From a virus: a DNA stretch of 64,000 bases. Shown here in pieces: positions 6,924 through 62,016 of the stretch (position 1 is its first letter; each line of letters begins with the position of its first letter). Location of the stretch: positions 192,001 through 256,000 of IMG/VR virus record IMGVR_UViG_3300045988_179014; one strand, 5' to 3'. The translations under genes and the position numbers were made by a program. The notes under the pieces are model-generated. The model saw nothing but the letters and a program-made list of their open reading frames with translations. It searched no databases and was not told where the DNA came from.

Positions 6924-6976
6924 TTGCTTGGTTTATTAGGCTAATGGCAATATCAATACCTAATACCAGCAAAACA

Positions 6977-9391
6977 TCACATCAAATCATGCAAATCGGG
7001 CAATGCCTCTTCCTCATCTTCCTGCACTGGAATTGATTTAACAGAATGCGAATCAGGTCGCGTCTGACGTATTTCAGGTTTGTAGTTCGAATCATTGAAC
7101 AATGCTTTAAAACTACTTGTTTCCAATGCTGACCTAGATGTACGTGATGAAGCATTGGTCATATTCTTTGCGGTTTGAGAAGAACGAACAACAGGTAATG
7201 GTTTGTCAACAGGTATTGAAAGAACGTCCCGCATATCCGGGTCTAGCTCATCATCCAACGATTCAAAACCAAACCCGCCATCTTCATCTTCTTCTGACAT
7301 CTGGATTGTGTCATATTCATTCATTGAACTGTTACCAGTATATAATGCCGCCAGAGGATGTTCGCTTTCTTCAGAAGATAACATATTCTGTTGTTCCGGA
7401 CCTGGCAACGTGTTCAATGCTGAATCTGTTTTCTCCAATGAAACAGAAACGGTATCTGACTCATCATGACCAATGGAATCAAATTTTGGTTCATAATAGT
7501 TCGCAATGACTTTATCATCCGGAATCATCCAAACTTTCCGTACCAATGCCCCACCTTCATGATTCCGATATCGTGGGTCATCTGGTGATTTGTTGATGAC
7601 AATAGCTGTAGCGCGATAATTGTTTGTTGAGGTTGGAGCACTCAAATTCATGAAAGCCTGAGTGGGCACAATCCAACGTTCCTCTTCACGTGATTGAACA
7701 GTTTGGTTACGACGATTACGCCAATTGCTTGAAAAGAGGAATGTACGATTGTTGTTGGCTTGACTGTAAACAGTGACCATATGTTTCCCAGAAATTTTGG
7801 ACAGTCTGGTAGCCGAATCCTCTGTCGCTCCGCTGTGAACGATAAAGTTGGAACATGTATCCATGATTCCCAACAAATATGCTTCCCCATTGTGTTCAGC
7901 AGCCGCAATTATTTGTTCAAAAGATTGTGAAGACAAAGTCATGGCAATTTTTGATTCACGAGACTTTTCCAACAATGAGGTAACTGCTGTTGGTGGTACT
8001 GCTTGAAACTCATCAATATATACGTTTACTTGGTTTCTGTCTCCAGCATTTCTTCTTCGTGCGGATACAGCATTGAGGTCAGCGAGGATGAGCGACCCCA
8101 TGTAACGCGAGAAGTCTTTTTCCGAGTCAGCATTCAAGGAGAACAGAATCACATTACCCGGCTCTTTCGTCAATTGGTACAAATCAATGGTTCGCGACCC
8201 TTTGGCAGGACGTAACCAACGACCATATTCAGAAGCCATCAATGTGCGCATCTGTCCTTGTAGCGCCCCAAGCTGGCGAGTCAAATCATCAGTACGGTTA
8301 CGAGTTTTCAAAGCAAGATATTCAGCATCTTCTTGAATGTCCGTCCCCTCACATGCTCCTGCCAATTCATCCAAGTTCCCATTGACAGCAGAAGCAATTT
8401 GACAGATGTGTCCATGGTTCCAGTCAATTGATTTGGTTTTGGAACGGTCAGCCAGTCTTAACATGGAAAAAAGAATCTGAAGAATCTGTCTCATATAGCT
8501 TTTGTAGACAGCTGCGGCATTGTCATATTCACGCATGCCCAAAACCATGTCAGCTTTACCAGCACCCCCACTAATCAAAGGGTCATATGTTGCTTGACCT
8601 GGCGATTTAGGAACATCATAACTACCAGGTTCACCATTGACGAAATGATAAAAATTGCATCCATACTCATGAGCCCAAGCAGCAGTTTTGGAAGCCAACT
8701 CAGGAGACCGTTTGAAATCCACAATCACCACTGGCATTTGATTTTTGATGTCATTCAAAATCATTGACAACATGGTAATTGTTTTTCCTGAACCAGCTGA
8801 CCCACTGATAAGAGTTTGTTTCACTGCTTCGGACATATAACGGTAAACGACAGTATCGTTGTCTTCATTCAGTCCTAATGGAGCTTTCTCCTCACTGGCA
8901 AAACTGCCATCCTTCAATTTTTGAATATTCTTGTTACGTTTGAACAATTCAAAAGGTGTTCTGCGATACCGGAAATTATACAACCAACTTCCCTGCAATT
9001 TGAGTTTGTGAGGATTGTTTTTTATCTGTTGAACTTGTACAAAACTGAGAACAAAACCAAATGGACCTGCCAACATGAGATTCACAAGCAACATGGCTGG
9101 AATCATTTCTGTCCAAGTTTCCATAATAGTGGATAGATTATTGAATACTGACAGAAAACGATTCAAGGCATTGGTAGAGGCCCAGACAATCGCCAATACA
9201 ATTTCATATATGAGGATGATTGTAGTGATAACTGATAACTTTTGACGCCCCCACCGTAGCAACAAATAAAAACTGTAACCTACTACAACAGCTGGTAAAA
9301 AAATGATACCAAGCAGGACTAGCAAACCCCATTCGTTGCCGTCCCCGTCCTTGTCATCTTTTTTCTCTTGCTCTGGCCCCAAAAGTAACAC
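6977..9391 (-). CDS. Membrane-anchored P-loop ATPase, FtsK/TcpA or VirD4/TraG-like type IV coupling protein
   Basis: Three N-terminal TM helices, Walker A SGSAGSGKT, Walker B VYIDEFQ, acidic low-complexity C-terminal tail. Confidence 0.55.
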   Translation of the reverse strand: MLLLGPEQEKKDDKDGDGNEWGLLVLLGIIFLPAVVVGYSFYLLLRWGRQKLSVITTIILIYEIVLAIVWASTNALNRFLSVFNNLSTIMETWTEMIPAMLLVNLMLAGPFGFVLSFVQVQQIKNNPHKLKLQGSWLYNFRYRRTPFELFKRNKNIQKLKDGSFASEEKAPLGLNEDNDTVVYRYMSEAVKQTLISGSAGSGKTITMLSMILNDIKNQMPVVIVDFKRSPELASKTAAWAHEYGCNFYHFVNGEPGSYDVPKSPGQATYDPLISGGAGKADMVLGMREYDNAAAVYKSYMRQILQILFSMLRLADRSKTKSIDWNHGHICQIASAVNGNLDELAGACEGTDIQEDAEYLALKTRNRTDDLTRQLGALQGQMRTLMASEYGRWLRPAKGSRTIDLYQLTKEPGNVILFSLNADSEKDFSRYMGSLILADLNAVSARRRNAGDRNQVNVYIDEFQAVPPTAVTSLLEKSRESKIAMTLSSQSFEQIIAAAEHNGEAYLLGIMDTCSNFIVHSGATEDSATRLSKISGKHMVTVYSQANNNRTFLFSSNWRNRRNQTVQSREEERWIVPTQAFMNLSAPTSTNNYRATAIVINKSPDDPRYRNHEGGALVRKVWMIPDDKVIANYYEPKFDSIGHDESDTVSVSLEKTDSALNTLPGPEQQNMLSSEESEHPLAALYTGNSSMNEYDTIQMSEEDEDGGFGFESLDDELDPDMRDVLSIPVDKPLPVVRSSQTAKNMTNASSRTSRSALETSSFKALFNDSNYKPEIRQTRPDSHSVKSIPVQEDEEEALPDLHDLM

Positions 9392-24321: not shown

Positions 24322-24809
24322 AATGACCTCCTATGCTCCGTTTCTTCCCTAGAATGATGGGCGCACACTTTTGTATACACATATATATTATCAAACACAA
24401 CCATTTTAAACAATTTCTCTAACATAAGTTGCCATATTGTATAACCTTCAGATGAATATATGGCCGGAGAAAACAAAGTGATTGATTCCATTCATTCATC
24501 AAATTCACACAACCACTCAATACCGTGATACATTCAACACTTCCACTGATTCATCGTTTTCGCTCAATTGAAACTCATAAAATCTTGTGAAAAATGACAA
24601 GAATAAATCCAGCTTTATCAATTATGAACACAAAAACTGAAACATAGGTATGACATTGATTATTGTGGATTTTGAAAGCAATACAACAAAAACACTAACT
24701 GTTTGCATGCACTGTATTCAGTTCATTTGCGCACTACTTCAACAGTTGTATGAATTGGATACATTTTTGCATAACATGATTGGAAGGACTTCTCGCAATG
24801 CATGAAAAA

Positions 24810-24849
24810 CCTCCCAGAACTGGTTGCATCAAACCATAGTTCTGGGAGG
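24810..24849 (-). terminator. Rho-independent terminator for the topoisomerase gene (12 bp stem cctcccagaact / agttctgggagg, followed by a T-run on the minus strand)
   Basis: Perfect inverted repeat immediately 3' of the minus-strand ORF 24876-27008; tttttc follows in the transcript sense. Confidence 0.6.
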
Positions 24850-24875
24850 TTCCAGGAAAAAATACTTACTTCATT

Positions 24876-33176: not shown

Positions 33177-33656
33177 CTATTTGTTTCTGACATTTTTCCA
33201 CGAATAATTTTCGATTCGAGCCTTTTCCAATAGTTCTACCAGTTGTTCGCGTTTCTGCTCACAATCAGCAATCTGCTGGTCCAATCGTTTAATTTGCCCC
33301 AAAACACCAAGCCTTTCTGTTTCCGCCAAGTATTTCTTGTGTTGACGAATACGGGAACGAATCATTGAAGCAAAACCACGGTCTGTCATCTGAATAATAT
33401 GTCGTTCCAATTTGATGTCTTGACGACCTTGAAAGCGGTCCTTCACTGTTATTACAATGTATTCATTTGTTAAATCTTTAATGGCAATGTTCTTAACGAC
33501 CCAAAACAAGTCACCTAGGTATTCCTCGTTCTTTTTATGGTAGGCGGAACACCCAAGGCTTTTCTCAACCACAGAGCGTCCCACTGCTTGTAAAGCTTGC
33601 AGTTTCAGAAAAACAAACTGACGAAACAATTTGGCATAGAACCGTTTACTGGTCAT
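33177..33656 (-). CDS. Hypothetical protein, paralog A of a tandem pair
   Basis: Collinear similarity with 33660-34241 (e.g. ...EYLGDLFWV... vs ...EFLGDLSWV...; FASMIRSRIRQHKKYL vs FASMVRSRIHQHKSHL). Confidence 0.45.
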   Translation of the reverse strand: MTSKRFYAKLFRQFVFLKLQALQAVGRSVVEKSLGCSAYHKKNEEYLGDLFWVVKNIAIKDLTNEYIVITVKDRFQGRQDIKLERHIIQMTDRGFASMIRSRIRQHKKYLAETERLGVLGQIKRLDQQIADCEQKREQLVELLEKARIENYSWKNVRNK

Positions 33657-33659
33657 TTC

Positions 33660-34241
33660 TTAGCTCCTTCTGTCAGGCTTTGGACTGCTTTCGCTCTTGA
33701 GTTTCTTGTGTGTACGTTGATTGGTGTAGTTAACTAAATCATTCACAGTTTTCTTGTACTGTTCCTGCAATGTTGTCAACTGGTCACGCTTTTTGAAACA
33801 ATCATGAATTATTCGCTCCAACTCTCGTATCTCAGTTCGTGCTTCAATCAACTGTTGTCTGGCAAGATGACTTTTATGTTGATGGATACGAGAACGAACC
33901 ATTGAAGCAAAATCACGGTCGCTTTTATGTATGATGTTGCGTTCTAAGCTGATTTCTTCATAATGTTGGTTATTGCTACAAACCACTGCAATATGTTCTG
34001 GCGTTAGTTCTAAAATGTCAATTTTGCCAAGAACCCATGAAAGGTCACCCAAAAACTCTCCATTGACTGTAGTCCAATGCTGTCCCAACGATTTTTGAAC
34101 CACCAATCTGCCTACCATTTGCAAATTTCGTAACTTGGTAAGAACGAAAGAGTTGATTTCTTCCTTCAAGTTGCCCCATTGGTTCTGCAACTGGTCTTGT
34201 CGAGTTAAAAGTTGCATATACTGTGATTTATTACTCATCAA
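33660..34241 (-). CDS. Hypothetical protein, paralog B of a tandem pair
   Basis: See paralog A. Confidence 0.45.
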   Translation of the reverse strand: MMSNKSQYMQLLTRQDQLQNQWGNLKEEINSFVLTKLRNLQMVGRLVVQKSLGQHWTTVNGEFLGDLSWVLGKIDILELTPEHIAVVCSNNQHYEEISLERNIIHKSDRDFASMVRSRIHQHKSHLARQQLIEARTEIRELERIIHDCFKKRDQLTTLQEQYKKTVNDLVNYTNQRTHKKLKSESSPKPDRRS

Positions 34242-34576
34242 TATTTCCCATCATAAAGACATCAATAATAATCCAGTTGTTGATTGGTTCATTATAGGCA
34301 TCAAATGTTAACCAAGTTTGGGTTATGTGTCCTGTTTTAATGAGTCCCGTAGCACCACATGGTATAGGGGGACAGCAATTCAGCAACATGGCTATTTTGG
34401 TGTTAATATAGAAAAATTCAGGTTGCTGGGATGCAAAATCAATTATTGCATGAGCGACCTGATGCGTATGGGGCGAGGTTGTGTACGAAGTAACCTACAG
34501 CACAATGTTTCCTTTCATCTAATTAAAGTCAATGATAACTTTATCACTGACGTCTTCTAGTGATAACTTTATCATG

Positions 34577-34649
34577 GGTGCTTCTGGCGGGAATCGAACC
34601 CACTTACGCGGTTTTAGGGACCACTGCTTGACCATTAAGCTTCAGAAGC
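34577..34649 (-). tRNA. tRNA with anticodon CUA (amber-suppressor-like), 71 nt + CC, atypical C33
   Basis: Minus-strand cloverleaf folded by hand: acceptor GCUUCUG/CAGAAGC, D arm GCUU-AAUGGUC-AAGC, anticodon arm GUGGU-CCCUAAA-ACCGC, 4-nt variable loop, T arm GUGGG-UUCGAUU-CCCGC, discriminator A. The loop reads C-C-[CUA]-A-A. Confidence 0.6.
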
Positions 34650-34702
34650 CTCCGTGAGAAGTCAAATCAAAACTCCTCACTATTCACTAGAATACCACAA
34701 TT

Positions 34703-35482
34703 TCAACTGTTTGTAAAATCAGTTTCGGCTGTCAAAGCGGTTTTTGCCAGTCCTGGACGACGTAGTGGAGGATAGATTTCTGATGCGTCCCCTGCCCGAT
34801 ATAAGTCTGATGAACGTCCACCAACAATACTTGACGTGCGTTTTGTCCCCACCTCATACAGTAATCCTGGTACTGATTGAAGTTTACGACGAAAATTGCT
34901 TGGAATGATGGAAACTCCCCACACTATTTCATAGACTCGACGTAATTCTGACATGGTGAATGTTTCATCTTCCAAAAAATGATGAGCAATGGGGCTGTAC
35001 TTAATTTTGGCTCGAACCCGCTCCAGCCCATCATGAACAATGACATCATGGTCAAATGCCAACTCAAAATCATCACTGAGAACGTCTGCAACAGGGAAGA
35101 AATGAGCTTCTGCGGCATCATCTCCGGCTTTTGGCCGTTCTACTTGTGGAGCCAATGCCACATATGCTGTAGATACCACAAAACCTCGTGGGTCTCTACC
35201 AGGATTGCCGTAGGTTTTCAACTGTTCCAAGTAGCCATCTTCAATGGTTAAATTAGTTTCTTCCTTCAACTCGCGGGCAGCTGCATCATCCAACGATTCA
35301 TTGGTGTTAACAAAGCCCCCGGGAAGCGCCCATTTTCCTTTATTCGGATGGTCACCACGTTTTATCAACAAAATACATAGTTGCCCATTCCGGATTGTGA
35401 AAATTATCAAGTCAACTGTCACACCAACAGATGGATAGTCTGACATGTTATAACCAGCCAGAAAATCTTCTTCATCAATCAT
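34703..35482 (-). CDS. NrtR-like Nudix protein (Nudix ADP-ribose pyrophosphatase domain + C-terminal winged-helix)
   Basis: Nudix box GGFVNTNESLDDAAARELKEETNL (Gx5Ex7REUxEE). The C-terminal region, including NFRRK, resembles the NrtR DNA-binding domain. Confidence 0.55.
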   Translation of the reverse strand: MIDEEDFLAGYNMSDYPSVGVTVDLIIFTIRNGQLCILLIKRGDHPNKGKWALPGGFVNTNESLDDAAARELKEETNLTIEDGYLEQLKTYGNPGRDPRGFVVSTAYVALAPQVERPKAGDDAAEAHFFPVADVLSDDFELAFDHDVIVHDGLERVRAKIKYSPIAHHFLEDETFTMSELRRVYEIVWGVSIIPSNFRRKLQSVPGLLYEVGTKRTSSIVGGRSSDLYRAGDASEIYPPLRRPGLAKTALTAETDFTNS

Positions 35483-35551: not shown

Positions 35552-35758
35552 CTACCATTGCTCTGATTGAGTGATTTTATGATTGAGTCGATGATGCCAT
35601 GTTATGTGAACAGTTCTATTGGCAACCAAAGAACCACATAGAACACAGATTGATAGCACAGGTGATTCTCCGGTTTTAGGATTCAATACTGGTAGCCTCA
35701 CAAATTCTGGAACTGGGAATGATTTGAGACCCCAAGGAGATTGGCTATCTTCATTCAT
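35552..35758 (-). CDS. Small hypothetical protein (68 aa, Cys/His-containing), translationally coupled to pncA
   Basis: 4-nt overlap with the upstream pncA ORF; CVLCGS...HITWHH could bind metal. Confidence 0.3.
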   Translation of the reverse strand: MNEDSQSPWGLKSFPVPEFVRLPVLNPKTGESPVLSICVLCGSLVANRTVHITWHHRLNHKITQSEQW

Positions 35759-36345
35759 AGTATCTCAACGCCTGCTTTAAGAAAATCGTTAGTCAACAAT
35801 TTACGAACCTGTTCATTGTTAATTCCTACACAGAATCTTGACAAAATAGTAGTATGTAACCCTTCACGTACTGCATCCAAAGCCGTTTCTCGGACACAAT
35901 AATCAGTTGCAATACCCACGATAGCCACATTGTTTACGCCGAGTTCACGAAGCGCAGCAGCCAATGTTGTTCCATCTTCGGTCATTCCTTCAAAACCTGA
36001 ATAAGCTGCTGCAAACATACCTTTATGTACAGCAATAGAAACTCCACGTCCTCGCTCAGCATCTTTTCGTAATGCATTTGCTAAAGTTGGTACAAGACCT
36101 GCTCCTTCAGTATCAGCTACACAATGAACCGGCCAAGAATCAACAAAATCAGGGTTACTGGAAAAATGCGAACCTGGTTCAATATGCCAATCCTGAGTAG
36201 TGACCAGATAGTCATATTCATTCAAAGTCCCGTCATTAATCGCATCAGCCAAATCATGTGCAAGTTGAGACCCACCAGTAACGGCTAATGCTCCACCCTC
36301 TACGAAATCGTTCTGCACGTCCACAATAATCAATGCTGTGTTCAT
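35755..36345 (-). CDS. pncA: Nicotinamidase / isochorismatase-family hydrolase (PncA-like)
   Basis: ALIIVDVQNDF, catalytic-type residues (D..K..C in ...VHCVADTEG...), ~196 aa. Confidence 0.65.
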   Translation of the reverse strand: MNTALIIVDVQNDFVEGGALAVTGGSQLAHDLADAINDGTLNEYDYLVTTQDWHIEPGSHFSSNPDFVDSWPVHCVADTEGAGLVPTLANALRKDAERGRGVSIAVHKGMFAAAYSGFEGMTEDGTTLAAALRELGVNNVAIVGIATDYCVRETALDAVREGLHTTILSRFCVGINNEQVRKLLTNDFLKAGVEIL

Positions 36346-36346
36346 A

Positions 36347-36895
36347 TCATATTCCTGATTTTCTGCTTGTCCAGTTTAAATGTTCTTTCGCCCAGTCCAA
36401 TATACGAATGATATGTTTCAACTCAAGTCCATTGTGACTATTTGGTTGAATAACCAATGATGGCGCCAAGGTATTACCACGTACATGGTCTTCCCAAAAC
36501 TGTGGCGCTTTGTCATCTATCCAAACAAAAGGTCGTGGATTGTGTTGTTGGTGGTCTATGATGTAGTCTGCTTTCCACCGTGTCCAAGCTTTATAACCTT
36601 TTGTTTGAACATCAAAATTGGCAGGACTGTGTTGTGACAAATCTGCAAGACCCATTATTTCCGCTACTTTGCAAATATTGGCACCATCATTCCAAGTTGT
36701 GTGCCAAATGGAATCAAAACATCCAGTTGACAAAAGCTGCGATATCAATTGGACCGATTCCGGATTCCAATTGATTTGCGTTTTATGTGACAAAATTTCG
36801 CTATTATGTGTAGCGATACGTGCCCTAGTCGTGTTTGACGATGGCGTAATATTGTACACACCGTTGAAATCTGAGTATATTACAAAATTCATCAC
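36347..36895 (-). CDS. Hypothetical protein inside the NAD-salvage operon (possible HAD-like phosphatase)
   Basis: VIYSDFNGV weakly resembles HAD motif I; FVWIDDKAP resembles motif IV. Tightly packed between pncA and pncB. Confidence 0.3.
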   Translation of the reverse strand: MMNFVIYSDFNGVYNITPSSNTTRARIATHNSEILSHKTQINWNPESVQLISQLLSTGCFDSIWHTTWNDGANICKVAEIMGLADLSQHSPANFDVQTKGYKAWTRWKADYIIDHQQHNPRPFVWIDDKAPQFWEDHVRGNTLAPSLVIQPNSHNGLELKHIIRILDWAKEHLNWTSRKSGI

Positions 36896-37211
36896 AGGTT
36901 CCTTAAATCAGTATCCATAATGTTTCCATTTTATCCCAGACCAGAGACAACAACAAAACCTGTGCATACTGTTCTTCAAGTTTCAAGTTTTCATGGTTCT
37001 AAGCGTCAAGGAAACATTTAGACACCTTGAAACCAGCATTACAACAATTTGTACAAACTGGAGTAAATCAGTCAACATCGTTTCCAATCACGACCACAAT
37101 GAATCACGCTACATTCGTTACTCGTTTCCAACATTGTCTCGACTGGAGAAATTAAATAATCTGTTGACAGCAATCATCTCTGAAATGTTTCATTGGTTGT
37201 TGTAATATGGG

Positions 37212-38507
37212 TTATTTTTCAACAACTTCAAACATGGGTTTTCCCGCAGAAGTCAACAATGCCTCTTTGGGCAGAGTACTCAGAGTGTACGCATGAAAAG
37301 CACGAGATTCCTCTATTGTTGGAATATGGTAGTTTCCTTCATTGACATACATTATTTGTACAGGATGAATTGAACCAGATGCGATATCGTCATGCTTCAA
37401 CGACCCAATTCGATAGTATTCACCAGTCATGATTCCATGGTCATAGGTGCGATAAGCTATTTTCAGCCCGCCAGTGGTTTTCTTCCCAGATGCATTTTTC
37501 GCTACTGGAACCATCTCTCCATTACTGTTTTCCCGTTCTACCAATTTGAACACCATTGAAGCAGTTGGATGACCTGAACCAGTTACCACACGAGTTCCGA
37601 CACCAATCCCATCAACTGGTGTTCCTTGGTCAACAAGTTCCGCAATAGTGTATTCATCAATGTCCGAGGAAAGAATAATTTTAGTGTTCACAGCTCCAAG
37701 TTCATCCAACAGGTTACGAGCTTTGACGGTTTCTTCATGCAAATCCCCAGAATCTATACGAATACCACCCAAACTAGGCCCAGCAACTTCTATTGCATTA
37801 CGAATACCTTGTTCAATGTTATATGTATCCACCAGTAATGTAGTTTCAACACCCAATGCATCAATTTGTGCTTGGAAAGCAGATTTTTCATCCTCAAAAT
37901 CTAATGTGAACGCATGGGCTGAAGTGCCAGTGGTAGGAATACCATAACACAATCCAGCTTCCAAATTTGATGTGGCACTGAAACCAGCAATATATGCAGC
38001 ACGAGCAGAATCAATAGCTGCCTTCTCATGAGTACGTCGTGAACCCATCTCAATCAGTGGCAGTCCTTGAGCGGCCACAACCATTCGTGAAGCAGCTGAC
38101 ATTACAGCAGAATCGTGGTTCAGGATGGACAATAGTATGGTTTCCAACAAAACAGCATCACCAAAGAACCCTTCAACTGTCAGAATTGGACTGTTGGGGA
38201 AATAGACGTCCCCTTCACGATATCCTCTGATACGTCCACTGAATGTATAATCACGAAGATAATCAATCGTATCAGAATGAATCATTGGGTCATTTTTCAA
38301 CAAATCAAGCTGTTCTTCTGTGAACCTGAAATCCTTCACTGCTTTAACCGCCCTGTTGACACCTCCCACAACCCCATAACGGCGACCTTTGGGAAGTGTA
38401 CGAGCAAACAAATCAAATGTGGCTTTATCAAATGCATGACCTGATTCCAAAGCCGCTTGCAGCATTGTGATTTCATACTTGTCTGTTTGAAAGGCTGTAC
38501 TTGCCAT
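37212..38507 (-). CDS. pncB: Nicotinate phosphoribosyltransferase (PncB)
   Basis: N-terminal DKYEITMLQAALESGH...ATFDLFAR and 431 aa length are typical of bacterial NAPRTase. Confidence 0.7.
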   Translation of the reverse strand: MASTAFQTDKYEITMLQAALESGHAFDKATFDLFARTLPKGRRYGVVGGVNRAVKAVKDFRFTEEQLDLLKNDPMIHSDTIDYLRDYTFSGRIRGYREGDVYFPNSPILTVEGFFGDAVLLETILLSILNHDSAVMSAASRMVVAAQGLPLIEMGSRRTHEKAAIDSARAAYIAGFSATSNLEAGLCYGIPTTGTSAHAFTLDFEDEKSAFQAQIDALGVETTLLVDTYNIEQGIRNAIEVAGPSLGGIRIDSGDLHEETVKARNLLDELGAVNTKIILSSDIDEYTIAELVDQGTPVDGIGVGTRVVTGSGHPTASMVFKLVERENSNGEMVPVAKNASGKKTTGGLKIAYRTYDHGIMTGEYYRIGSLKHDDIASGSIHPVQIMYVNEGNYHIPTIEESRAFHAYTLSTLPKEALLTSAGKPMFEVVEK

Positions 38508-41051: not shown

Positions 41052-42095
41052 TCATTCCTCCATACCTTGAACATAATCGTAATAAGTCTCTGCGGCTACT
41101 GACAGCTCAGCTTGATAACGATTTTCCAGATTTGATTTGACATCGTACTGTAAAGCTTCATATCCCTTGAATGCTCCAAGAAAAGCTCCGCCAACAGCTG
41201 CTAAACTATCAGAATCACCATTGGTCCACACCAACCGTTGAATCCCTTTGTAGATGCTTCTAGAGCTGTATGCTGCAACAGCAATAATGGCGTTGTACAA
41301 TGTCTCATCCGCTACCCAACCTTCCCCAAAGAAAGAGGTCATGTCGGCTTGTGTGGGAGCATCCAGAAAATCATCCCATTTGAGGCCAAGTTGAGACAGC
41401 CCATCTCTTAGATGCTGAACACCATCTTGAGCATCCTGAACCAAATTACTAGGCATCTTGGCAATTTCGCTCAACACCAACTTGGCATAATGAATGAACT
41501 TTGGCCCAAGAACGTTTTCACTGTCCATATTGAGCAGGTCTCTGGTGAGAAGTGCTGCAAGAGCAGACGCAATCCAACCCACATGACTTCCATGAGTTGT
41601 CTGGGCTTGGATGATAGCAAGGTATACGACTGTTTCGCGGTTATACGGCAATGCTCCAAACCAAGGAGCCCGCATTACTGTTCCACAACCATTGCTATTG
41701 TTGGTTGCTCCCTCCATACCAGTAGATACATTACGAGTATTAAGATATGTTCCCAATGCTCGCATGCATGTCATACCAGGAGCGCGGTTATTCTCAAGGT
41801 CATAGTAGAAATCCACATGATGTGACGCAAAAATCATACGAATCTGGTTTTGCAAGTCCACATTCTGACCTAGTTCTTTCAAATCATCTGATGAATACCG
41901 TTTCATCATGTCTTTGATTGCGGCCAGATTGTATAGACTCATCTGTGTGTCATCAGAAACACGAAGAACATGTGGAGGTTTCACCTTGTTGCGTACAATT
42001 TGTGGATATTGCATGAACTCAGTAACATATCCCCATGCATCACCAAATGCAAACCCATATATCATACCGTCAATTTTGTTCTGGGAAATAACCAT
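41052..42095 (-). CDS. ADP-ribosylglycohydrolase (ARH/DraG/Tri1 family)
   Basis: GMIYGFAFGDAWGY and VSDDTQMS motifs; ~347 aa. Confidence 0.7.
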   Translation of the reverse strand: MVISQNKIDGMIYGFAFGDAWGYVTEFMQYPQIVRNKVKPPHVLRVSDDTQMSLYNLAAIKDMMKRYSSDDLKELGQNVDLQNQIRMIFASHHVDFYYDLENNRAPGMTCMRALGTYLNTRNVSTGMEGATNNSNGCGTVMRAPWFGALPYNRETVVYLAIIQAQTTHGSHVGWIASALAALLTRDLLNMDSENVLGPKFIHYAKLVLSEIAKMPSNLVQDAQDGVQHLRDGLSQLGLKWDDFLDAPTQADMTSFFGEGWVADETLYNAIIAVAAYSSRSIYKGIQRLVWTNGDSDSLAAVGGAFLGAFKGYEALQYDVKSNLENRYQAELSVAAETYYDYVQGMEE

Positions 42096-42226
42096 ATATT
42101 CTCGCTTTCTGTAGACTCCTCATCTGTTCAAATACTAAAACACGATTTTTGAGAGATTGGGTTCTTGTCTCTTGTTGCTGTGTATAGTATTGTCAATTAT
42201 GAGACTTGTACACCATTCATCAATGT

Positions 42227-42406
42227 TCAAGAAACCACTTTACCATCATCATCGAACTGAACCGCATGTTCTACTGGACGGGGAAGGTCTGCATGACGTT
42301 CAGGTCGTAACGCCATAGTCTCCAAATTGGCGTCAGTTGTGTCCTTGCTTCCACTTGTGTTAGGATGTTCCACGTTGAGGATGTTGTCAATCGGATTATT
42401 AGTCAT
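42227..42406 (-). CDS. Small ORF (59 aa) between the ART triplet and the ARH, with strong Shine-Dalgarno
   Basis: Read directly from the DNA: AAAGGAG, 7 nt, then ATG ACT AAT AAT CCG ... TGA. Just below the 60-aa threshold of the ORF track. Confidence 0.35.
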   Translation of the reverse strand: MTNNPIDNILNVEHPNTSGSKDTTDANLETMALRPERHADLPRPVEHAVQFDDDGKVVS

Positions 42407-42465
42407 TGAATACTCCTTTAGTTATTTATTGGCTTTTCAACTTTACCATGTTGTTTAATCTTGTG

Positions 42466-43707
42466 TCAAGCTTGTTCATCATTATCCGAAATAGACTTAC
42501 TTGGTATAGGGTCGGTTTGGGTGAAGGAATTAGTCCCATCCAAGATTTCGCCTTTGTCATTAATAGCGACCAACTGAACTATTGTTGTTGTGCCTTTGTC
42601 ATCTTCTGAACATTTGACATTTTTGTGCACACCAACAACCACGTAACGTGCTCGTCTTGGGAGAACCACTTCACGTTCACGTTCATATAGACTGACGTCA
42701 GTAACATTTACTCCTTCAGGTGTTAAAATCTCGTAAATCAAACCATCTTCGTACTCTGAATATTTATGTGCAACATCAAAAGATAAACTAGCGGATTGGT
42801 ACCCATCAAACACAACCTCTTTCCCCAAAGGCATGTTCTGGTCTACCCAATTACTGACACTACCTGCTTCATCGAATACAGAAGAATCCGCCTTCTTTCC
42901 GCGATAAAGAATTCGTTGTCTTTTAGGACCACGACTTAACGCATCATCCAAGACGCTACATATTTTGTCTATTGTTTCTTTGGTGCGAAACTTGGGCGAA
43001 ACACTAAACCCTGACAGATGAATGTTTTGTTGGTTATCTTCGTCGAATATTCCATACCCTTCTTCAGCAAATTTCTTATACGACTCATCCGGTTCTGGCA
43101 ATTCAGTATTTCTGCCATATAGAATGTTGTTGAACCACTCATAACTGTTAGAAGTGAAAAATCTGGCGGCTAATTTCTCATTCACACTTAATTTACGTAA
43201 TTCAATCTCTGATAACTTGCGTATAGTGCGAACTGGTAGCCCAATTGGTTGGTATTCATTTGGATTCTCATGCGGATTTTGAAAACCAAAAACTGAATAA
43301 GACTCTTCATTCAAATTATTGTAATTGATGATACCTCTCACATAATGAGGTGCCAAATATCCTGCTTTCACCAAATTACCACTCTGTTTTTGATAAGTAA
43401 TATTGAGCGATTCGTCTGTATAGACTTTTTTGTATAGTCTCACACGAGCCTTCCCAGCCAACTCGGCCAGTCTCTTATCATCGTAGTTATCAAAGTTGAA
43501 CTCGACAGCAGAGTATATATTTTTCATCTTTGGTGTAGATGTATTATCAGGAGCAGAAACACTACTCCTTGTTGAAGCAAGGATTGTTTCCGAAACTGAT
43601 GCAGCTTTTTTAGCGGCATAAGCTGCTCTCCGGCGAGCGTTCCGAGCTGCAATAGCTACTGGGTCTCTATGTGATGGACAACGACGTATTGAAGCTAAAC
43701 GACACAT
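42466..43707 (-). CDS. Mono-ADP-ribosyltransferase (C2/C3/iota/VIP2-like R-S-E class), paralog 3
   Basis: ILYRGK (Arg motif), GYQSAS (STS-like), EREVVLPRRARY (ExE + EVLLPR-like ARTT region). Shares the N-terminal leader MCRLASIRRCPSH.DPVAIAARNARRRAAYAAKKA. Confidence 0.65.
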   Translation of the reverse strand: MCRLASIRRCPSHRDPVAIAARNARRRAAYAAKKAASVSETILASTRSSVSAPDNTSTPKMKNIYSAVEFNFDNYDDKRLAELAGKARVRLYKKVYTDESLNITYQKQSGNLVKAGYLAPHYVRGIINYNNLNEESYSVFGFQNPHENPNEYQPIGLPVRTIRKLSEIELRKLSVNEKLAARFFTSNSYEWFNNILYGRNTELPEPDESYKKFAEEGYGIFDEDNQQNIHLSGFSVSPKFRTKETIDKICSVLDDALSRGPKRQRILYRGKKADSSVFDEAGSVSNWVDQNMPLGKEVVFDGYQSASLSFDVAHKYSEYEDGLIYEILTPEGVNVTDVSLYEREREVVLPRRARYVVVGVHKNVKCSEDDKGTTTIVQLVAINDKGEILDGTNSFTQTDPIPSKSISDNDEQA

Positions 43708-43713
43708 GTAACA

Positions 43714-44940
43714 TTACTCCCTGTTCTCAAACGGGTCGGTTTTTGGAGAGGCATTTGTTCCATCCAAGATTTCACCTTTCTCATTAATGGCCACCAACTG
43801 AACTATGGTTGTCATACCTTCGTAATCTCCTGGACATTTGACATTTTTGTGTACACCAACAACCACATAACGTGCTTGTCTTGGAAGAACTACTTCACGC
43901 TCGTTTTCATATTTACTAACGTTGGTAACATTTATTCCTTCAGGCGTTAAAATCTCATAAATCAAACCAGAACTACCTGAATATTCACATGCAACATCAA
44001 AAGATTGACTAGCAGATTGGTAGCCATCAAATACAACCTCTTTCCCCAAAGGCATATTCTGGTCCACCCAGTTACTAACGCCACCAGCCTTATTAAAGAT
44101 TGAGGAAAAACCTGGCTTTCCACGATAAAGAATTCGTTGTCTTTTAGGACCACGACTTAACGCATCATCCAAGACACTACATATTTTCTGCACTGTCTCT
44201 TCTGTACGGTATTCAGGCGGAATACTAAAATTTGATGCATAAGCGTCTTCTTGGTTGTCTTCGTCGAATATTCCATACCCTTCTTCAGCAAATTTCTTAT
44301 ACGATTTATCGGGTTTTGGCAATTTAGTATTTTTCCCATATAGAATACTGTTGAACCAATCATAATTGGTAGAAGTGAAAAATCTAGCAGCCAATAATTC
44401 ACTCACATTTAATGCATCCAACTCAACTGCTGACAAATCACACACAGTATGAACTGGTAACTCAATTGGTTGGTACCCATCTGGATTCTCATGCGGATTT
44501 TGAAAACCAAAAATTGAGTAAGACTCTTCATCCAAATTATTGTAATTGATAACGCCTCTCACATAACGAGGAGCCAAATATCCTGCATTCACCAAGTTGC
44601 CGCTCTGCTTCTGATAAGTAATATTGAGCGACTCATCTGTATCGACTTTTTTGTATAGTCTCACACGAGCTTTACCCTCCAATCCAGCCAGTCTCCCATC
44701 ATCATATTCATCAAAATCAAACTTGACAGCAGAGTATATATTTTTCATCTTTGGAGCAGGTGTATTATCAGGAACAGAAACATTGCCACTTGTTGGGGCA
44801 ACATTTGTTTCCGAAACTGATGCGGCTTTTAGCGCAGCCTTTTTCGCAGCATAAGCGGCTCTTCTCCGGGCGTTACGCGCCGCAATAGCCACTGGGTCAC
44901 TATGAGATGGACAACGGCGAATAGAAGCTAAACGACACAT
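43714..44940 (-). CDS. Mono-ADP-ribosyltransferase, paralog 2
   Basis: RILYRGK, GYQSASQSF, ENEREVVLPRQARY; N-terminal leader nearly identical to paralog 3. Confidence 0.65.
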   Translation of the reverse strand: MCRLASIRRCPSHSDPVAIAARNARRRAAYAAKKAALKAASVSETNVAPTSGNVSVPDNTPAPKMKNIYSAVKFDFDEYDDGRLAGLEGKARVRLYKKVDTDESLNITYQKQSGNLVNAGYLAPRYVRGVINYNNLDEESYSIFGFQNPHENPDGYQPIELPVHTVCDLSAVELDALNVSELLAARFFTSTNYDWFNSILYGKNTKLPKPDKSYKKFAEEGYGIFDEDNQEDAYASNFSIPPEYRTEETVQKICSVLDDALSRGPKRQRILYRGKPGFSSIFNKAGGVSNWVDQNMPLGKEVVFDGYQSASQSFDVACEYSGSSGLIYEILTPEGINVTNVSKYENEREVVLPRQARYVVVGVHKNVKCPGDYEGMTTIVQLVAINEKGEILDGTNASPKTDPFENRE

Positions 44941-44942
44941 GT

Positions 44943-46064
44943 TTACTCCTTGTTCTCAAACGGGTCAGTTTTCGGAGAGGCATTCGTTCCATCAAGAATC
45001 TCTCCTTTATCATTGATGGCAACCAATTGAACTACGCTTATTGGCCCGCTACCGGATGAAGCCATTCGTAAATCATTGTGCACCCCAACCACCAAATAAC
45101 GAGATTGTCTTGGTAACAGAACTTCTTTCTCATCCAAGAAGTCGCTGATAGATGAAATGTTAACACCTTCAGGAGTCATGATTTCAAAAACAAGACCACC
45201 ATTAGAACCAACATATGTTTTGGCAACTTCTAAATCAACACTGGATGATTGGTACCCATCGAATTTAAGCTCTTTACCCAAAGCAATGTTTTCGCTCATC
45301 CACTTTTCTAGGCCTCCAGCTTGTCTGATGAATTTGCTTTCAGCATCTACACAGCGATAAACAATTCGATTAATTTTAGGACCTTTTTCAAGTGCGCTGT
45401 CCAAAACTTTACATGTGTTACGAACTGTTTCTTTTGTACGCATTTCAAGAGGAATGTTAAAACTCATGATATAGTGCACATCTGAATAATCATTAACGAA
45501 TTCAGTTTTGGCATTACCTTCCACAACCTCGACCAAACAAGTCTCATTACCATGAAGAGCCCCATTGAACCATTCGTATTCATTGGTTGTAAAAAACCGA
45601 GTCGCTACTTGTTCTGGTAGCGACAACTTAGTCACTTCCTGCTTAGACAACTCAATTACTCGATTTGCCGGAATTGTCCTTCGTGAAAAACATTGCCTTT
45701 TGAACGGCATCTTGCCAAATCCAAATTCCATGTAACTGTTTTCATCAATGTTTTTGTGATTGATAACACCATGAAAAGTTTTCTCAGCAAAATACCCCAA
45801 CTGCACTAATGCCCCATTGTATTTATCTAAAGTTAAGTTTAGTTTCTGGTTGTTTTCAGTTGATACAGACTTGAACAAGATGTCCCCAGATTCTCCTTGA
45901 AATTCACCATCGAATGTACGAGAAGCGACAATTCCTGAAGTATTTGACTCTTGTGAAGCTTTTTCTAGTTTTCTGGCATGATAACGTTCTCGTCTCCGGG
46001 CGTTCCGGGCTGCAATAGCTACTGGGTCACTATATGATGGGCAACGTCGATTTTTTCTACACAT
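44943..46064 (-). CDS. Mono-ADP-ribosyltransferase, paralog 1 (more diverged)
   Basis: RIVYRC, GYQSSS, DEKEVLLPRQSRY; N-terminus MCRKNRRCPSYSDPVAIAARNARRR. Confidence 0.6.
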   Translation of the reverse strand: MCRKNRRCPSYSDPVAIAARNARRRERYHARKLEKASQESNTSGIVASRTFDGEFQGESGDILFKSVSTENNQKLNLTLDKYNGALVQLGYFAEKTFHGVINHKNIDENSYMEFGFGKMPFKRQCFSRRTIPANRVIELSKQEVTKLSLPEQVATRFFTTNEYEWFNGALHGNETCLVEVVEGNAKTEFVNDYSDVHYIMSFNIPLEMRTKETVRNTCKVLDSALEKGPKINRIVYRCVDAESKFIRQAGGLEKWMSENIALGKELKFDGYQSSSVDLEVAKTYVGSNGGLVFEIMTPEGVNISSISDFLDEKEVLLPRQSRYLVVGVHNDLRMASSGSGPISVVQLVAINDKGEILDGTNASPKTDPFENKE

Positions 46065-46811: not shown

Positions 46812-47966
46812 TCAAATTTTTGTTCTACACACGGGTCCGATGTTTCCGTGTTTAAGAGGCTGTCCACAACGTATACAACAACCTGAATTCCAAACAGTGG
46901 TTACCGCAGGTTCAGGATATGAAGACACTGTGGAAGGGTCCTGTGGCTCAGTGTGTTCAACTGTTGAAACCAATAATCCTTCCCGTTGGAACATTTGTAT
47001 CACACGAGGACGGTCATCAATAGCACCAACTACAGCAAAACCTTCAGCTCGCAGTTTTTTCAACTGTTCTAGCTTGTATTCTGTATCAGTACGATAATCA
47101 TTCAACCGTTTCAGCAACAATTTACTAACCGGGGCATCAACACGTTCCAGAAAATTAATGGTCTCTTGTGCATAGTTATCCGTTCTTCCAGACAATGCAA
47201 CAATGTTTATACCTTCAGCTCGCATTTCACGAATCAGATTCAATACTTGTGTGTTAACTGGAGCATATTCAGCCGCTTTGTGGAACTTGTGAAAATTCTT
47301 CTTCTGCCCAGGAACACCAAAAGCCTCATTCATATCTTTTTGGTTGTGAGCCAATGTCCCATCCAAATCCACCAACATAATAGCATTCCCTATCATTGGA
47401 TAACGTTGAGACATTTCCTCATCAAATTTCGCTATCCGGTCCATGCCATCAGTGTGAAACGGAACCACTGACACTTTTCCAGATGTTTTGGAGACAATGT
47501 ATTCTTTCAAATGCCCCTTGTCATCATAAGCTTTCTGGGCCATAGCATCAATAACATGTTCTGGAACGCAACGCCCACCTTGTTGACCACGAACAATATT
47601 TCGCTGTTTACACACATCAACAGGAACATCAAAATACAACTGTTCAATCTCAGCATTGTAGATTGAGGCCAAATTGTGCAAATGTTCCACCACGTTACGA
47701 TTCAAATTGGTATCATCTGAGATAACATGTTTTCCAGCAGCCAATCCTTGACGAATCAACTCATCCTGCACTGCTGTTACCTGTTCTTCACATTTCTTGC
47801 GAGGCGATTGGTTATGATACTCGCTACCGAACAACGCAGTACGAATGTCATCACGATTCACACGAACAGTGTTTTCAGGGTCAGACGCAACCATTTGTTC
47901 TGCCTGAGTGCTTTTACCCGACCCTGGAAGCCCGTGCGTCATGGTGAAACGCGGATTACCGCTCAT
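46812..47966 (-). CDS. Polynucleotide 5'-kinase/3'-phosphatase (T4 Pnk-like) with C-terminal zinc-ribbon tail
   Basis: GLPGSGKST, VNRDDIR, ISDDTNLN (kinase); MLVDLDGTLA, ALSGR, AIDDRPRVIQMFQREG (HAD phosphatase). Collinear with T4 Pnk motifs. C-terminal CCIRCGQP...CRTK. Confidence 0.85.
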   Translation of the reverse strand: MSGNPRFTMTHGLPGSGKSTQAEQMVASDPENTVRVNRDDIRTALFGSEYHNQSPRKKCEEQVTAVQDELIRQGLAAGKHVISDDTNLNRNVVEHLHNLASIYNAEIEQLYFDVPVDVCKQRNIVRGQQGGRCVPEHVIDAMAQKAYDDKGHLKEYIVSKTSGKVSVVPFHTDGMDRIAKFDEEMSQRYPMIGNAIMLVDLDGTLAHNQKDMNEAFGVPGQKKNFHKFHKAAEYAPVNTQVLNLIREMRAEGINIVALSGRTDNYAQETINFLERVDAPVSKLLLKRLNDYRTDTEYKLEQLKKLRAEGFAVVGAIDDRPRVIQMFQREGLLVSTVEHTEPQDPSTVSSYPEPAVTTVWNSGCCIRCGQPLKHGNIGPVCRTKI

Positions 47967-58875: not shown

Positions 58876-59352
58876 TCACCGAATGTTTTTAAGAGAGAAT
58901 ACACACCCATTCTCTTCACGTTTACCAACTAAAATCCCTACATTGGATGCATCCCCAGTACGCCATGTTGCTGCTTGCACAGACCCTTGAAAATCTCGCG
59001 TACAAATTGGAGCCTTTCCTTCCAAAAGCTTCAGATTCGTTACATTTGTTGCAGTTTCTATTGTGGCAATAATATTCTCGTGATTATTGGTTCTGTTGTA
59101 GTGTGTGGCCAGTATGTAACATAATATTGTAGCCATCAAAACTGGAACCACTACAAGAGCTTTGGCAAGCGAATCAGTTTTCTGGGTTGCTGAAAAACTC
59201 AAATTGAAATAATGCGCGGTTATTACCATGCCAACAACAAGCACTATGATTGTTAATCCAAACGGCCATAATGACAGATGGTTAAAAGGTACTGTGGTCA
59301 TCGTGGCATCACCATGATAGATAGATTCTTCACACTTGGTTGTCTCACACAA
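58876..59352 (-). CDS. Membrane protein, 158 aa (two TM)
   Basis: LTIIVLVVGMVITA and LVVVPVLMATILCYIL helices. Confidence 0.4.
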   Translation of the reverse strand: MCETTKCEESIYHGDATMTTVPFNHLSLWPFGLTIIVLVVGMVITAHYFNLSFSATQKTDSLAKALVVVPVLMATILCYILATHYNRTNNHENIIATIETATNVTNLKLLEGKAPICTRDFQGSVQAATWRTGDASNVGILVGKREENGCVFSLKNIR

Positions 59353-59516
59353 CGTCCATACTCAGTCAAATATGTGTTAAACAATGTAGTCAGGAAATCA
59401 ACTGCCTGTTCTGGTCTCATTCTTTGTCGTCCCTTTAGAATAACAACGACTCGGACCTGCTCCTTGGCTTTCAAAAATTTCTGGGCCTGTGCCATTTTTC
59501 TATGTAAATCGTTCAA
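59298..59516 (-). CDS. Translation initiation factor IF3 C-terminal-domain-like protein (72 aa)
   Basis: VRVVVILKGRQRMRPEQAVDFL...SIMVMPR parallels IF3-C ([20 protein letters not shown]...MIMVLAP). Overlaps the 3' end of the upstream gene by ~55 nt. Confidence 0.4.
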   Translation of the reverse strand: MNDLHRKMAQAQKFLKAKEQVRVVVILKGRQRMRPEQAVDFLTTLFNTYLTEYGRCVRQPSVKNLSIMVMPR

Positions 59517-61452: not shown

Positions 61453-62016
61453 TTATGGATACACAATGACAGAGGTGACAAAGCTCCAAGGAACATACTG
61501 GGTTAGAATCACATCATTCAAGGTTTTGTAAAACTTCAATCCTGCTGCTTGCATTGCATTACCATCAATGCTCAGTACAACAGGTATGCTCTTATGTTGA
61601 CGGGCAGCAGATAATGCTATTTTCTCATCTGATGACAAATGCACAAACAGTCGTGAACCAGGAACAATACCCCATTCACGGATAGTGCCTACTTTTGATG
61701 CTGTGGTGCCATGATAAATAGTTCCAGGATTGTCAACTGAATCTAATTCTATGGTTATTGGAATAGAATGTCCTTCAGTAGCCCAAACACGACCATTAAC
61801 AACAGCATAATGACCACTGCTATCTTCATCAACAATTTTATGAATCATGCTTTCAGAAGTGTTCAATGCTTTGGCTAAATCTGTAACTTCAACTGAACCA
61901 TCCTGGTGCATATCAACTTGATACTGTTCAGGAGCATGACATAGGGCCTGATTCATTTGTTGGGACAATTCAGTCAATTCCATGTCTCTCCTCAATTCCT
62001 CGATATCATTGTTCAA
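61453..62016 (-). CDS. kptA: RNA 2'-phosphotransferase Tpt1/KptA
   Basis: IYHGTTASKVGTIREWGIVPGSRLFVHLSSDEKIALSAARQHKSIPVVLSIDGNAMQAAGLKFYKTLNDVILT is collinear with E. coli KptA (LYHGT ... HYVHLSADE..A..VG.RHG.PVIL.V ... GV.LT). Confidence 0.8.
   Translation of the reverse strand: MNNDIEELRRDMELTELSQQMNQALCHAPEQYQVDMHQDGSVEVTDLAKALNTSESMIHKIVDEDSSGHYAVVNGRVWATEGHSIPITIELDSVDNPGTIYHGTTASKVGTIREWGIVPGSRLFVHLSSDEKIALSAARQHKSIPVVLSIDGNAMQAAGLKFYKTLNDVILTQYVPWSFVTSVIVYP

Follow-up and report, generated by a model that had tools for sequence, protein, structure and literature searches.

A predicted amber-suppressor tRNA paired with an amber-gated PTH2-like gene in a very large phage-like element of the human oral metagenome

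Described suppressor systems and the present locus

Stop-codon recoding in phages was reportedly described by Ivanova et al. in 2014. In bacteria, the amber suppressor su7 (supU) of E. coli is a tRNA-Trp with the anticodon CUA, and prfB, the gene of release factor 2 (RF2), is autoregulated by an in-frame UGA passed through a +1 frameshift which senses RF2. Phage suppressor transfer RNAs (tRNAs) together with stop-codon recoding are known from crAss-like, Lak, Agate and Jade phages, and some standard-code phages related to recoded ones are likewise reported to carry suppressor tRNAs (Borges et al., 10.1101/2021.08.26.457843). Genes for peptidyl-tRNA hydrolase 2 (PTH2) in jumbo phages have already been described (Iyer, Anantharaman, Krishnan, Burroughs and Aravind 2021, PMC7824862), and the literature likewise holds suppressor tRNAs in jumbo phages and nicotinamide adenine dinucleotide (NAD+) genes in jumbo phages. 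The present analysis concerns 64,000 nucleotides of viral DNA (the window; positions 192,001 to 256,000 of IMG/VR record IMGVR_UViG_3300045988_179014), a piece of a 337,400-bp human oral metagenome contig, k119_28504 of ENA ERZ27262748, in which it lies reversed at about 90106-154105. The window carries a tRNA gene with a CUA anticodon at 34577..34649 on the minus strand and, downstream of it, an open reading frame (ORF) whose third codon is TAG. All of the evidence for the locus is computational. With moderate confidence, the tRNA is read as a working amber suppressor and the ORF as its client, a PTH2-like gene gated by the amber codon. Computation across phage genomes showed that the early amber codon is conserved in many unrelated large phages, is nearly always TAG and co-occurs with a nearby tRNA(CUA).

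The locus resembles recoded phages in having a phage CUA tRNA for UAG in a standard-code host and in that an in-frame stop would control particular genes. It differs in that a single gene family appears to be gated, at codon 3 or 4, in genomes that otherwise have TAG and TAA stops in the sampled DNA, and in that the gated gene is predicted to encode a translation-recycling factor and not a structural or lysis protein. No mention of peptidyl-tRNA hydrolase in recoding papers was found in the searchable open-access literature. As in prfB, an early in-frame stop in a translation-factor gene would make synthesis depend on competition at the stop, whereas here a dedicated suppressor tRNA would be needed, the product is PTH2-like instead of a release factor, and a feedback logic is suggested by analogy. 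The anticodon arm GGUCUCUAAAACC, found in su7 and in those members of the window's tRNA family that carry U33, corresponds to the arm of tRNA-Trp carrying a C35-to-U change. The acceptor stem GCUUCUG and A73 of the window tRNA set it apart from bacterial tRNA-Trp, which has G73, and the window copy has C33 and A8 as well. The survey of jumbo-phage PTH2 genes (PMC7824862) is matched by the window in its additional genes for PNKP, Tpt1 and HAD_SAK proteins, whereas the survey makes no link to an in-frame amber codon or a suppressor tRNA and the word 'suppressor' is absent from it. A paper linking PTH2 to an in-frame stop or a suppressor tRNA was not found in the searchable open-access literature, which does not by itself prove newness.

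The tRNA(CUA) gene and the gated reading frame

ARAGORN found a single tRNA in the window, of 73 nt, with anticodon cta and on the minus strand, and the Rfam model RF00005 aligned over its full length (1-71) with a score of 54.4 bits against a gathering threshold of 29 (E = 6e-09). A CUA tRNA with a good cloverleaf had been folded by hand in an earlier note on this DNA, and both programs bore it out: the anticodon was again CUA, and the score was over the threshold. The fold consisted of a 7-bp acceptor stem (GCUUCUG/CAGAAGC) followed by AA, a 4-bp D stem (GCUU/AAGC) with the loop AAUGGUC, a single A, a 5-bp anticodon stem (GUGGU/ACCGC) with the loop CCCUAAA, a 4-nt variable loop (GUAA), a 5-bp T stem (GUGGG/CCCGC) with the loop UUCGAUU, and a discriminator A at 34579, after which the gene encodes CC only, without the terminal A of CCA. 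In the anticodon loop (C32, C33, C34, U35, A36, A37, A38), CUA (34617-34615) lies within 7 nt and is followed by a purine at position 37, as in an amber suppressor. Two near-universal nucleotides were replaced, U33 by C (34618) and U8 by A (34642).

The identity of a tRNA-Pyl is marked by a 6-bp anticodon stem, a 3-nt variable loop, a very small D loop, one base between the acceptor and D stems, and pylS/pylBCD nearby. The label tRNA-Pyl, given by ARAGORN from the anticodon alone, was rejected on the 5-bp anticodon stem, the 4-nt variable loop, the 7-nt D loop and the A8 and A9 between the stems, and no Pyl genes were present among the ORFs scanned. The only significant database match was the tRNA-Trp(CCA) of Phaeobacter phage MD18 (80% identity over nt 9-64, E = 3e-5), with further tRNA-Trp genes lower in the match list, which share a 71-nt architecture and the anticodon arm GGUCUCCAAAACC. 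The likeness to tRNA-Trp was confined to the body and the anticodon arm: the window tRNA has CUA and A73 in place of the CCA anticodon and G73 of bacterial tRNA-Trp, and its acceptor stem and A73 are closer to those of phage tRNA-Lys and tRNA-Thr genes. E. coli genomes gave no match.

Comparison with relatives, the sampled lineages being numbered with an L, showed the closest tRNAs in L017 (92% overall identity) and L020 (96%), in which the loop CCCUAAA was retained and most stem differences preserved pairing. Distant members of the family were located by a search for NrtR, the regulator whose gene precedes the tRNA, on contigs of up to 728 kb. Downstream of NrtR, a CUA tRNA was found in L028 (65% GC), L029 (34% GC, 681 kb contig) and L031 (34% GC, 728 kb contig), with scores of 50-62 bits. 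In an alignment of the six sequences, from lineages of 34-65% GC, 11 of 21 stem pairs showed compensatory double changes, while CUA, A37-A38, A8, A73, G1-C72 and G7-C66 were invariant. Near-consensus promoters stood at the equivalent site upstream of the tRNA in L031 (TTGACA-17-TATAAT), L029 (TTGACT-17-TATACT) and L028 (TTGACA..TAGTGT), and the L029 tRNA also has a strong terminator. In the window, a consensus scan gave two overlapping sigma-70-like promoter candidates at 34679..34717 on the minus strand, TTTACA-17-TATTCT preceded by TG, and TTGAAA-16-AATAGT, which are weak alone. Because of the covariation, the invariant CUA and the promoters directly upstream in relatives, the tRNA is considered functional and conserved; on this comparative evidence it is a gene under selection and not a chance fold. 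The A8 found in all six members of the family, including those of L028, L029 and L031, was a separate peculiarity, since the other suppressor tRNAs collected had U8 or rarely G8.

The earlier note had asked for C33 to be verified. It proved real, being present in the ARAGORN and Rfam folds as well as in the clade relatives, and it is a trait of the window clade and not of the tRNA family as a whole. L028, L029 and L031 carry the canonical U33 (CUCUAAA), and since these are three distant lineages, C33 is taken to be derived in the window clade. Among 46 distinct phage suppressor tRNAs gathered, four had C33, in two independent lineages, namely the window clade and L123 (433 kb contig), where the C33 tRNA(CUA) stands beside an intact canonical gated PTH2 gene. 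In yeast, the natural C33 of tRNA-Leu(GAG) does little harm to function (PMC13492127); this tRNA likewise shows C for the near-universal U33 in a decoding-competent tRNA, the difference being that it is a eukaryotic sense-codon tRNA and the present one a phage suppressor.

The gated ORF (34231..34503, minus strand, 90 codons) begins 73 nt downstream of the tRNA with GTG CTG TAG GTT (GTG at 34503-34501, TAG at 34497-34495) and ends with TAA at 34233-34231. A ribosome-binding site AAAGGAAA precedes it at about 34515-34508, and no alternative start was available; gene callers annotated just the last 52 codons. The counterpart in L031 reads ATG ACC TAG followed by 126 in-frame codons and was missed by the gene caller because it has no internal start, and that in L028 reads ATG GGC TAG followed by 131 codons. 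Both matched the Pfam PTH2 family (PF01981; 25.7 bits for L028 and 30.9 bits for L031, threshold 23), and the profile of the phage PTH2-like family matched solved Pth2 structures (2zv3, E = 1.2e-05). The window ORF is syntenic with these two genes and retains five family-invariant residues; its assignment as PTH2-like rests mainly on synteny, orientation and the shared signature of a start codon, one further codon and TAG. No other feature of the region is as well conserved between the window and L017 as this ORF (98.2% identity), and the window, L017 and L020 all retain an intact GTG-CTG-TAG start. After the gated ORF lie two tandem paralogues (33177-34241; 192/193 and 159 aa, 47% identical) without a Pfam or PHROG match. 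Their homologues follow the tRNA/PTH2 pair in L028 and L031, and the whole may be one conserved block.

Recurrence of the gate and competing explanations

A scan of IMG/VR with the window protein as reference retrieved nothing usable, because the window copy is too diverged, while the L031 and L028 proteins worked as references. AT-rich phages (26-27% GC) in IMG/VR were found to carry PTH2-like genes 33-36% identical that start with ATG ACA TAG, with a tRNA(CUA) of different acceptor stem 2-2.6 kb from the gated gene. The motif scan of IMG/VR produced 62 validated genes in 48 clusters. Of these clusters, 27 were TAG-gated within about the first five codons, one was TAA-gated, and the 20 ungated ones were mostly GC-rich with a sense codon at the gate position. 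A tRNA(CUA) was present in the fetched locus of 18 of the 27 gated clusters and of 3 of the 20 ungated ones (p = 8.6e-4). Several sampled loci are short contigs, for which the absence of a tRNA means little; when only gated clusters with enough downstream sequence were counted, 18 of 20 had the tRNA. In the annotated phage collection, PTH2-like matches were confined to six published metagenomic huge-phage genomes of 462-735 kb. Five of the six start with ATG N(N) TAG ATT (TAG at codon 3 or 4), two of these five have a tRNA(CUA) within 2.5 kb, and the sixth has an ungated gene adjoining a tRNA(UUA). The ORFs around the gate in these genomes were intact and their stops mostly TAA.

The choice of stop codon at the gate was strongly biased. 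PTH2-like genes had TAG in 44 cases, TAA in one and TGA in none, whereas a control count in 1.09 Mb of ATG followed by 1-3 codons, a stop and at least 90 open codons gave similar numbers for all stops outside this family (40 TAG, 54 TGA and 33 TAA); no other gene family with the same gate rose above the TAA and TGA background there. The single gene gated by TAA, that of L073, is closely related to genes gated by TAG, and a tRNA(UUA) lies 1.8 kb downstream of it. In all ten start contexts listed, a purine followed directly after TAG. Such a purine is said to favour suppression of UAG, following work on context effects attributed to Bossi (1983).

The bias also bears on whether the start codon, the next codon and TAG might form a true two-codon mini-ORF like lambda bar, the PTH2-like protein arising by reinitiation at a non-canonical codon and the tRNA(CUA) being unrelated. 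Two-codon minigenes are functionally tied to peptidyl-tRNA hydrolase in E. coli and lambda, and the codon after TAG in the five gated huge phages is ATT, a rare initiator. A mini-ORF would leave unexplained that TAA is almost never the stop although it dominates most of these genomes, that tRNA(CUA) is enriched near gated genes, and that the TAA case comes with a tRNA(UUA). Other lineages, the window among them, have GTT, GCT, AGC or AAC directly after TAG. Reinitiation after a mini-ORF is therefore judged highly improbable.

Some loci departed from the common arrangement. Two tRNA(CUA) genes, adjacent or close to each other, lie near the gated gene in L038 (7418-7571), L065, L090, L100, L114 and L121. 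In the L038 gated gene, codon 37 is a further in-frame TAG, in place of the N, E, D, V or G of homologues. A tRNA(UUA), of the ochre-suppressor type, stands beside the PTH2-like gene in L039 (5399-5475), L057 and L073, with no early in-frame stop in L039 and L057.

TAG usage in the source contig was analysed over 80 kb, comprising the window and about 8 kb past each of its ends (24% of the contig). The 65 ORFs of the window end with TGA in 35, TAA in 22 and TAG in 8 cases, and the TAG-ended ORFs include the primase and the RNase_T-fold exonuclease, in agreement with the earlier note, which had taken TAG for an apparently genuine stop. Standard-code ORFs fill 87-88% of the 80 kb and no gene was interrupted by TAG. 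When TAG was read as sense, only two gaps closed, a non-coding spacer and the tRNA region. The former, of 545 bp (24330-24875), was rejected as a TAG-read gene, as it closes with TAG as sense but contains stops in every frame and has no coding signal; this ORF-free stretch, which separates the GyrB-like gene from the gene that follows, could have a regulatory or origin-type role. Furthermore, the TAG that ends a 68-aa ORF upstream of NrtR is TAA in the tRNA-bearing relatives L017 and L020. Comparison of orthologues showed no in-frame TAG in real orthologous genes of any sampled lineage; raw in-frame-stop matches among orthologues were rejected as all came from spurious antisense ORFs in GC-rich loci. 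On these ORF data, TAG is a normal stop in the 80 kb.

The other way to account for the tRNA(CUA) is block-wise recoding of TAG in late structural and lysis genes elsewhere in the 337 kb genome (code-15-type), the gate being one of many recoded codons. Phage recoding is often limited to structural and lysis genes while replication genes keep the standard code (Borges et al., 10.1101/2021.08.26.457843), and the window carries replication and nucleotide-metabolism genes, its rarest stop is TAG, and 80 kb of the contig was covered. The marks of a TAG-recoded genome were absent from those 80 kb, given the eight TAG stops, the high coding density, the lack of TAG-split genes and the exchange of TAG for TAA in relatives. 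In the complete, module-bearing genome LR756500, four 50-kb samples (200 kb, 43%) contained no TAG-joined genes above background and had equal coding density under both codes, and the genes near the gate were intact in about 60 loci. A fixed gate position at codon 3 or 4 would also not be expected from diffuse recoding. Late-gene recoding is thus considered quite unlikely. The suggestion of the earlier note that the suppressor serves selected genes rather than a global reassignment of TAG is favoured by the standard code of the 80 kb and by the GTG-CTG-TAG client ORF, an arrangement that is widely conserved in other phages.

The same note had also offered compensation for host tRNA depletion or cleavage, which found no support, as no host needs a CUA tRNA. 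A related possibility is a counter-defence tRNA, either a replacement that resists nucleases or one that draws off the anticodon nucleases of the host, with C33 as an evasion mutation. Changes in the anticodon loop can let phage tRNAs escape host anticodon nucleases (PMC10264068), and the element is rich in RNA-repair genes (PNKP, Tpt1 and HAD_SAK). No host depends on a CUA tRNA, however, and a replacement would thus serve no need; every lineage has CUA while C33 varies, and the matched amber gate is left unexplained. A counter-defence function is barely credible on this evidence.

Several observations weigh against the pairing of a functional suppressor with an amber-gated PTH2-like client. 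The window ORF is highly diverged and has no Pfam match. A family hidden Markov model (HMM) built without the window copy misses it under default filters, and with filters off it ranks first of 815 window ORFs for two family HMMs, weakly (E = 0.07 and 0.01). It lacks a nearly invariant Asp and the C-terminal third with the RLPLAG region. The alignment sets a Tyr of the phage PTH2-like proteins opposite the catalytic Lys of archaeal Pth2, and the hydrolase activity of the phage proteins is putative. No PTH2-like gene stands within 10 kb of the L029 tRNA, for some gated genes the nearest 5 kb contain no tRNA(CUA), and the frame of the L073 gene is disrupted later in the gene, which weakens the TAA/UUA example. 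Additional TAG clients, or recoding of late genes, could lie in the other 257 kb of the contig. What the pairing is for, including the choice of a hydrolase as the gated gene, is conjecture. Finally, the L020 ORF is frameshifted and partly deleted, and the tRNA/gate module may be decaying in the window clade.

Taken further, the last point would make the module of the window clade a relic in which C33 cripples the suppressor and the downstream ORF is degenerate and inactive. The restriction of C33 to this clade, the lost motifs and weak HMM scores of the ORF, and the L020 copy would fit a relic. Against a relic stand the near-identity of the ORF in the window and L017, a GTG-CTG-TAG start intact in all three relatives and tRNA stem differences that mostly keep pairing. 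The L020 contig has a coverage of just 1.9×. The independent C33 suppressor beside an intact gated PTH2 gene in L123 and the small effect of C33 in the yeast tRNA-Leu(GAG) speak against a crippled tRNA. Decay to a relic is therefore held to be unlikely, and the C33 and the diverged ORF of the window clade could represent either retuning or decay of the module.

Flanking operon and source element

The tRNA begins 54 nt past the stop of the NrtR-like regulator gene (34703..35482, minus strand), which combines a Nudix domain (PF00293, 2.3e-19) with a winged helix (PF21906, 1.6e-11) and is the last gene of a NAD salvage operon. On the minus strand, the order of the operon is PncB (37212-38507), HAD_SAK_2 (36347-36895) and PncA (35755-36345), all assigned with Pfam, followed by the 68-aa Cys-rich ORF with the TAG stop (35552-35758) and NrtR, so that it spans 35552..38507 plus the NrtR gene. 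The operon was also found in L028, L029, L031 and L042-L044. The 68-aa ORF has a CxxC...H motif, is conserved in relatives and occurs between PncA and NrtR in most sampled lineages. Readthrough from this ORF into NrtR was rejected, since the two share a frame only by coincidence, the small ORF of relatives being a separate gene in a different frame, an AAGGAG site serves NrtR alone, and TAA takes the place of TAG in L017 and L020. The earlier note had placed the tRNA directly after the NAD operon, which held for the window and some lineages and not for others: three further NrtR lineages and a 50%-GC sister clade have no tRNA nearby. A functional link between the tRNA and the operon was rejected for the same reason.

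Just 3' of the tRNA, a palindromic motif TGATAAAGTTATCA occurs in two copies (34561-34574 and 34533-34546, within an element at 34528..34574 on the minus strand). The second copy forms part of a terminator-like 10-bp hairpin (34551-34528) that ends in a T-rich stretch and lies after the tRNA and before the gated ORF. L017 has a single copy owing to an indel of 28-29 nt. The TGATAA..TTATCA motif was rejected as an NrtR operator because only two copies exist, both at this site, and a duplicated hairpin or terminator fits better.

Near-identical contigs of 337-345 kb were found in further oral samples, and the source element belongs to a family of very large phage-like elements that includes L009, L021, L029, L031 and L043, with relatives of up to 681, 698 and 728 kb and a lineage GC from 34% to 65%. 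No close relatives were matched in annotated phage or plasmid collections. An identity with 'Inocle', the giant oral Streptococcus element, was rejected, as its GC is 24-32% compared with 41% in the window. The window encodes an RIIA-like protein, a dNMP kinase, a topoisomerase II/GyrB-like protein, ThyX and DnaG, and the overall gene content looks like that of a T4-style jumbo phage. Amid this phage-like genome are conjugation-like genes (window 5184-9391 and 214-2291; L009 10922-19058) for a TraG/TraD-type coupling ATPase, TcpC, a NikA-like protein and TadE, after which come proteins of 1227 aa and 537 aa, the latter having a Phage_lysozyme2 domain and a likeness to tape-measure proteins. 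Directly upstream of the NAD salvage operon, three tandem ADP-ribosyltransferase paralogues (373, 408 and 413 aa; Alt/Mod-like) and then an ADP-ribosylglycohydrolase are encoded at 41052-46064. Genes for RNA repair and translation comprised PNKP with kinase and HAD phosphatase domains (46812-47966), the HAD_SAK_2 'Swiss Army Knife' protein (36347-36895) that sits within the NAD operon, the RNA 2'-phosphotransferase Tpt1/KptA (61453-61983) and a 72-aa IF3_C-domain protein (59298-59516). In relatives, RNA ligase and 2H-SAK genes lie near the NAD operon.

Proposed mechanism and significance

In the proposed mechanism, the tRNA would be made either from a promoter of its own or at the end of the NAD operon transcript, processed and completed with CCA by host enzymes, and charged by a host synthetase with some amino acid. 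The tRNA body is Trp-like, yet A73, G1-C72 and U35 speak against charging with Trp. The identity of the inserted residue is probably irrelevant, because the gate falls in the variable N-terminal tail. At codon 3, the charged suppressor would compete with release factor 1 (RF1), termination yielding a dipeptide and readthrough the PTH2-like protein, so that synthesis of the latter would track suppressor activity relative to RF1. C33 would be a derived, tolerated variant that may tune the efficiency of decoding. The likely purpose would be to couple peptidyl-tRNA recycling to the stop-codon readthrough imposed by the phage. Such a coupling would be akin to the in-frame UGA of RF2, and it also brings to mind the tie between two-codon minigenes and Pth. 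The tRNA may act on further UAG codons of phage or host.

More generally, it is tentatively proposed, with slightly less than even confidence, that a tRNA and an early stop gate may form a self-contained translational switch which is widespread in huge and other standard-code phages, senses the balance of suppression and RF1, and adjusts how much of a peptidyl-tRNA-recycling enzyme is made, with gate codon and anticodon changing together (UAG with CUA, UAA with UUA). Phage suppressor tRNAs are usually explained by the wholesale recoding of late genes, and the present locus suggests a simpler use, with one tRNA for one gated gene in an otherwise standard-code genome. If confirmed, this would explain the suppressor tRNAs of some standard-code phages, and would mean that gene callers truncate or overlook an entire gene family, as in the source contig and L031. 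The module would also offer synthetic biology natural, compact pairs of a tRNA and a gate, and for the phages themselves it could be an entry point to stop-codon recoding.

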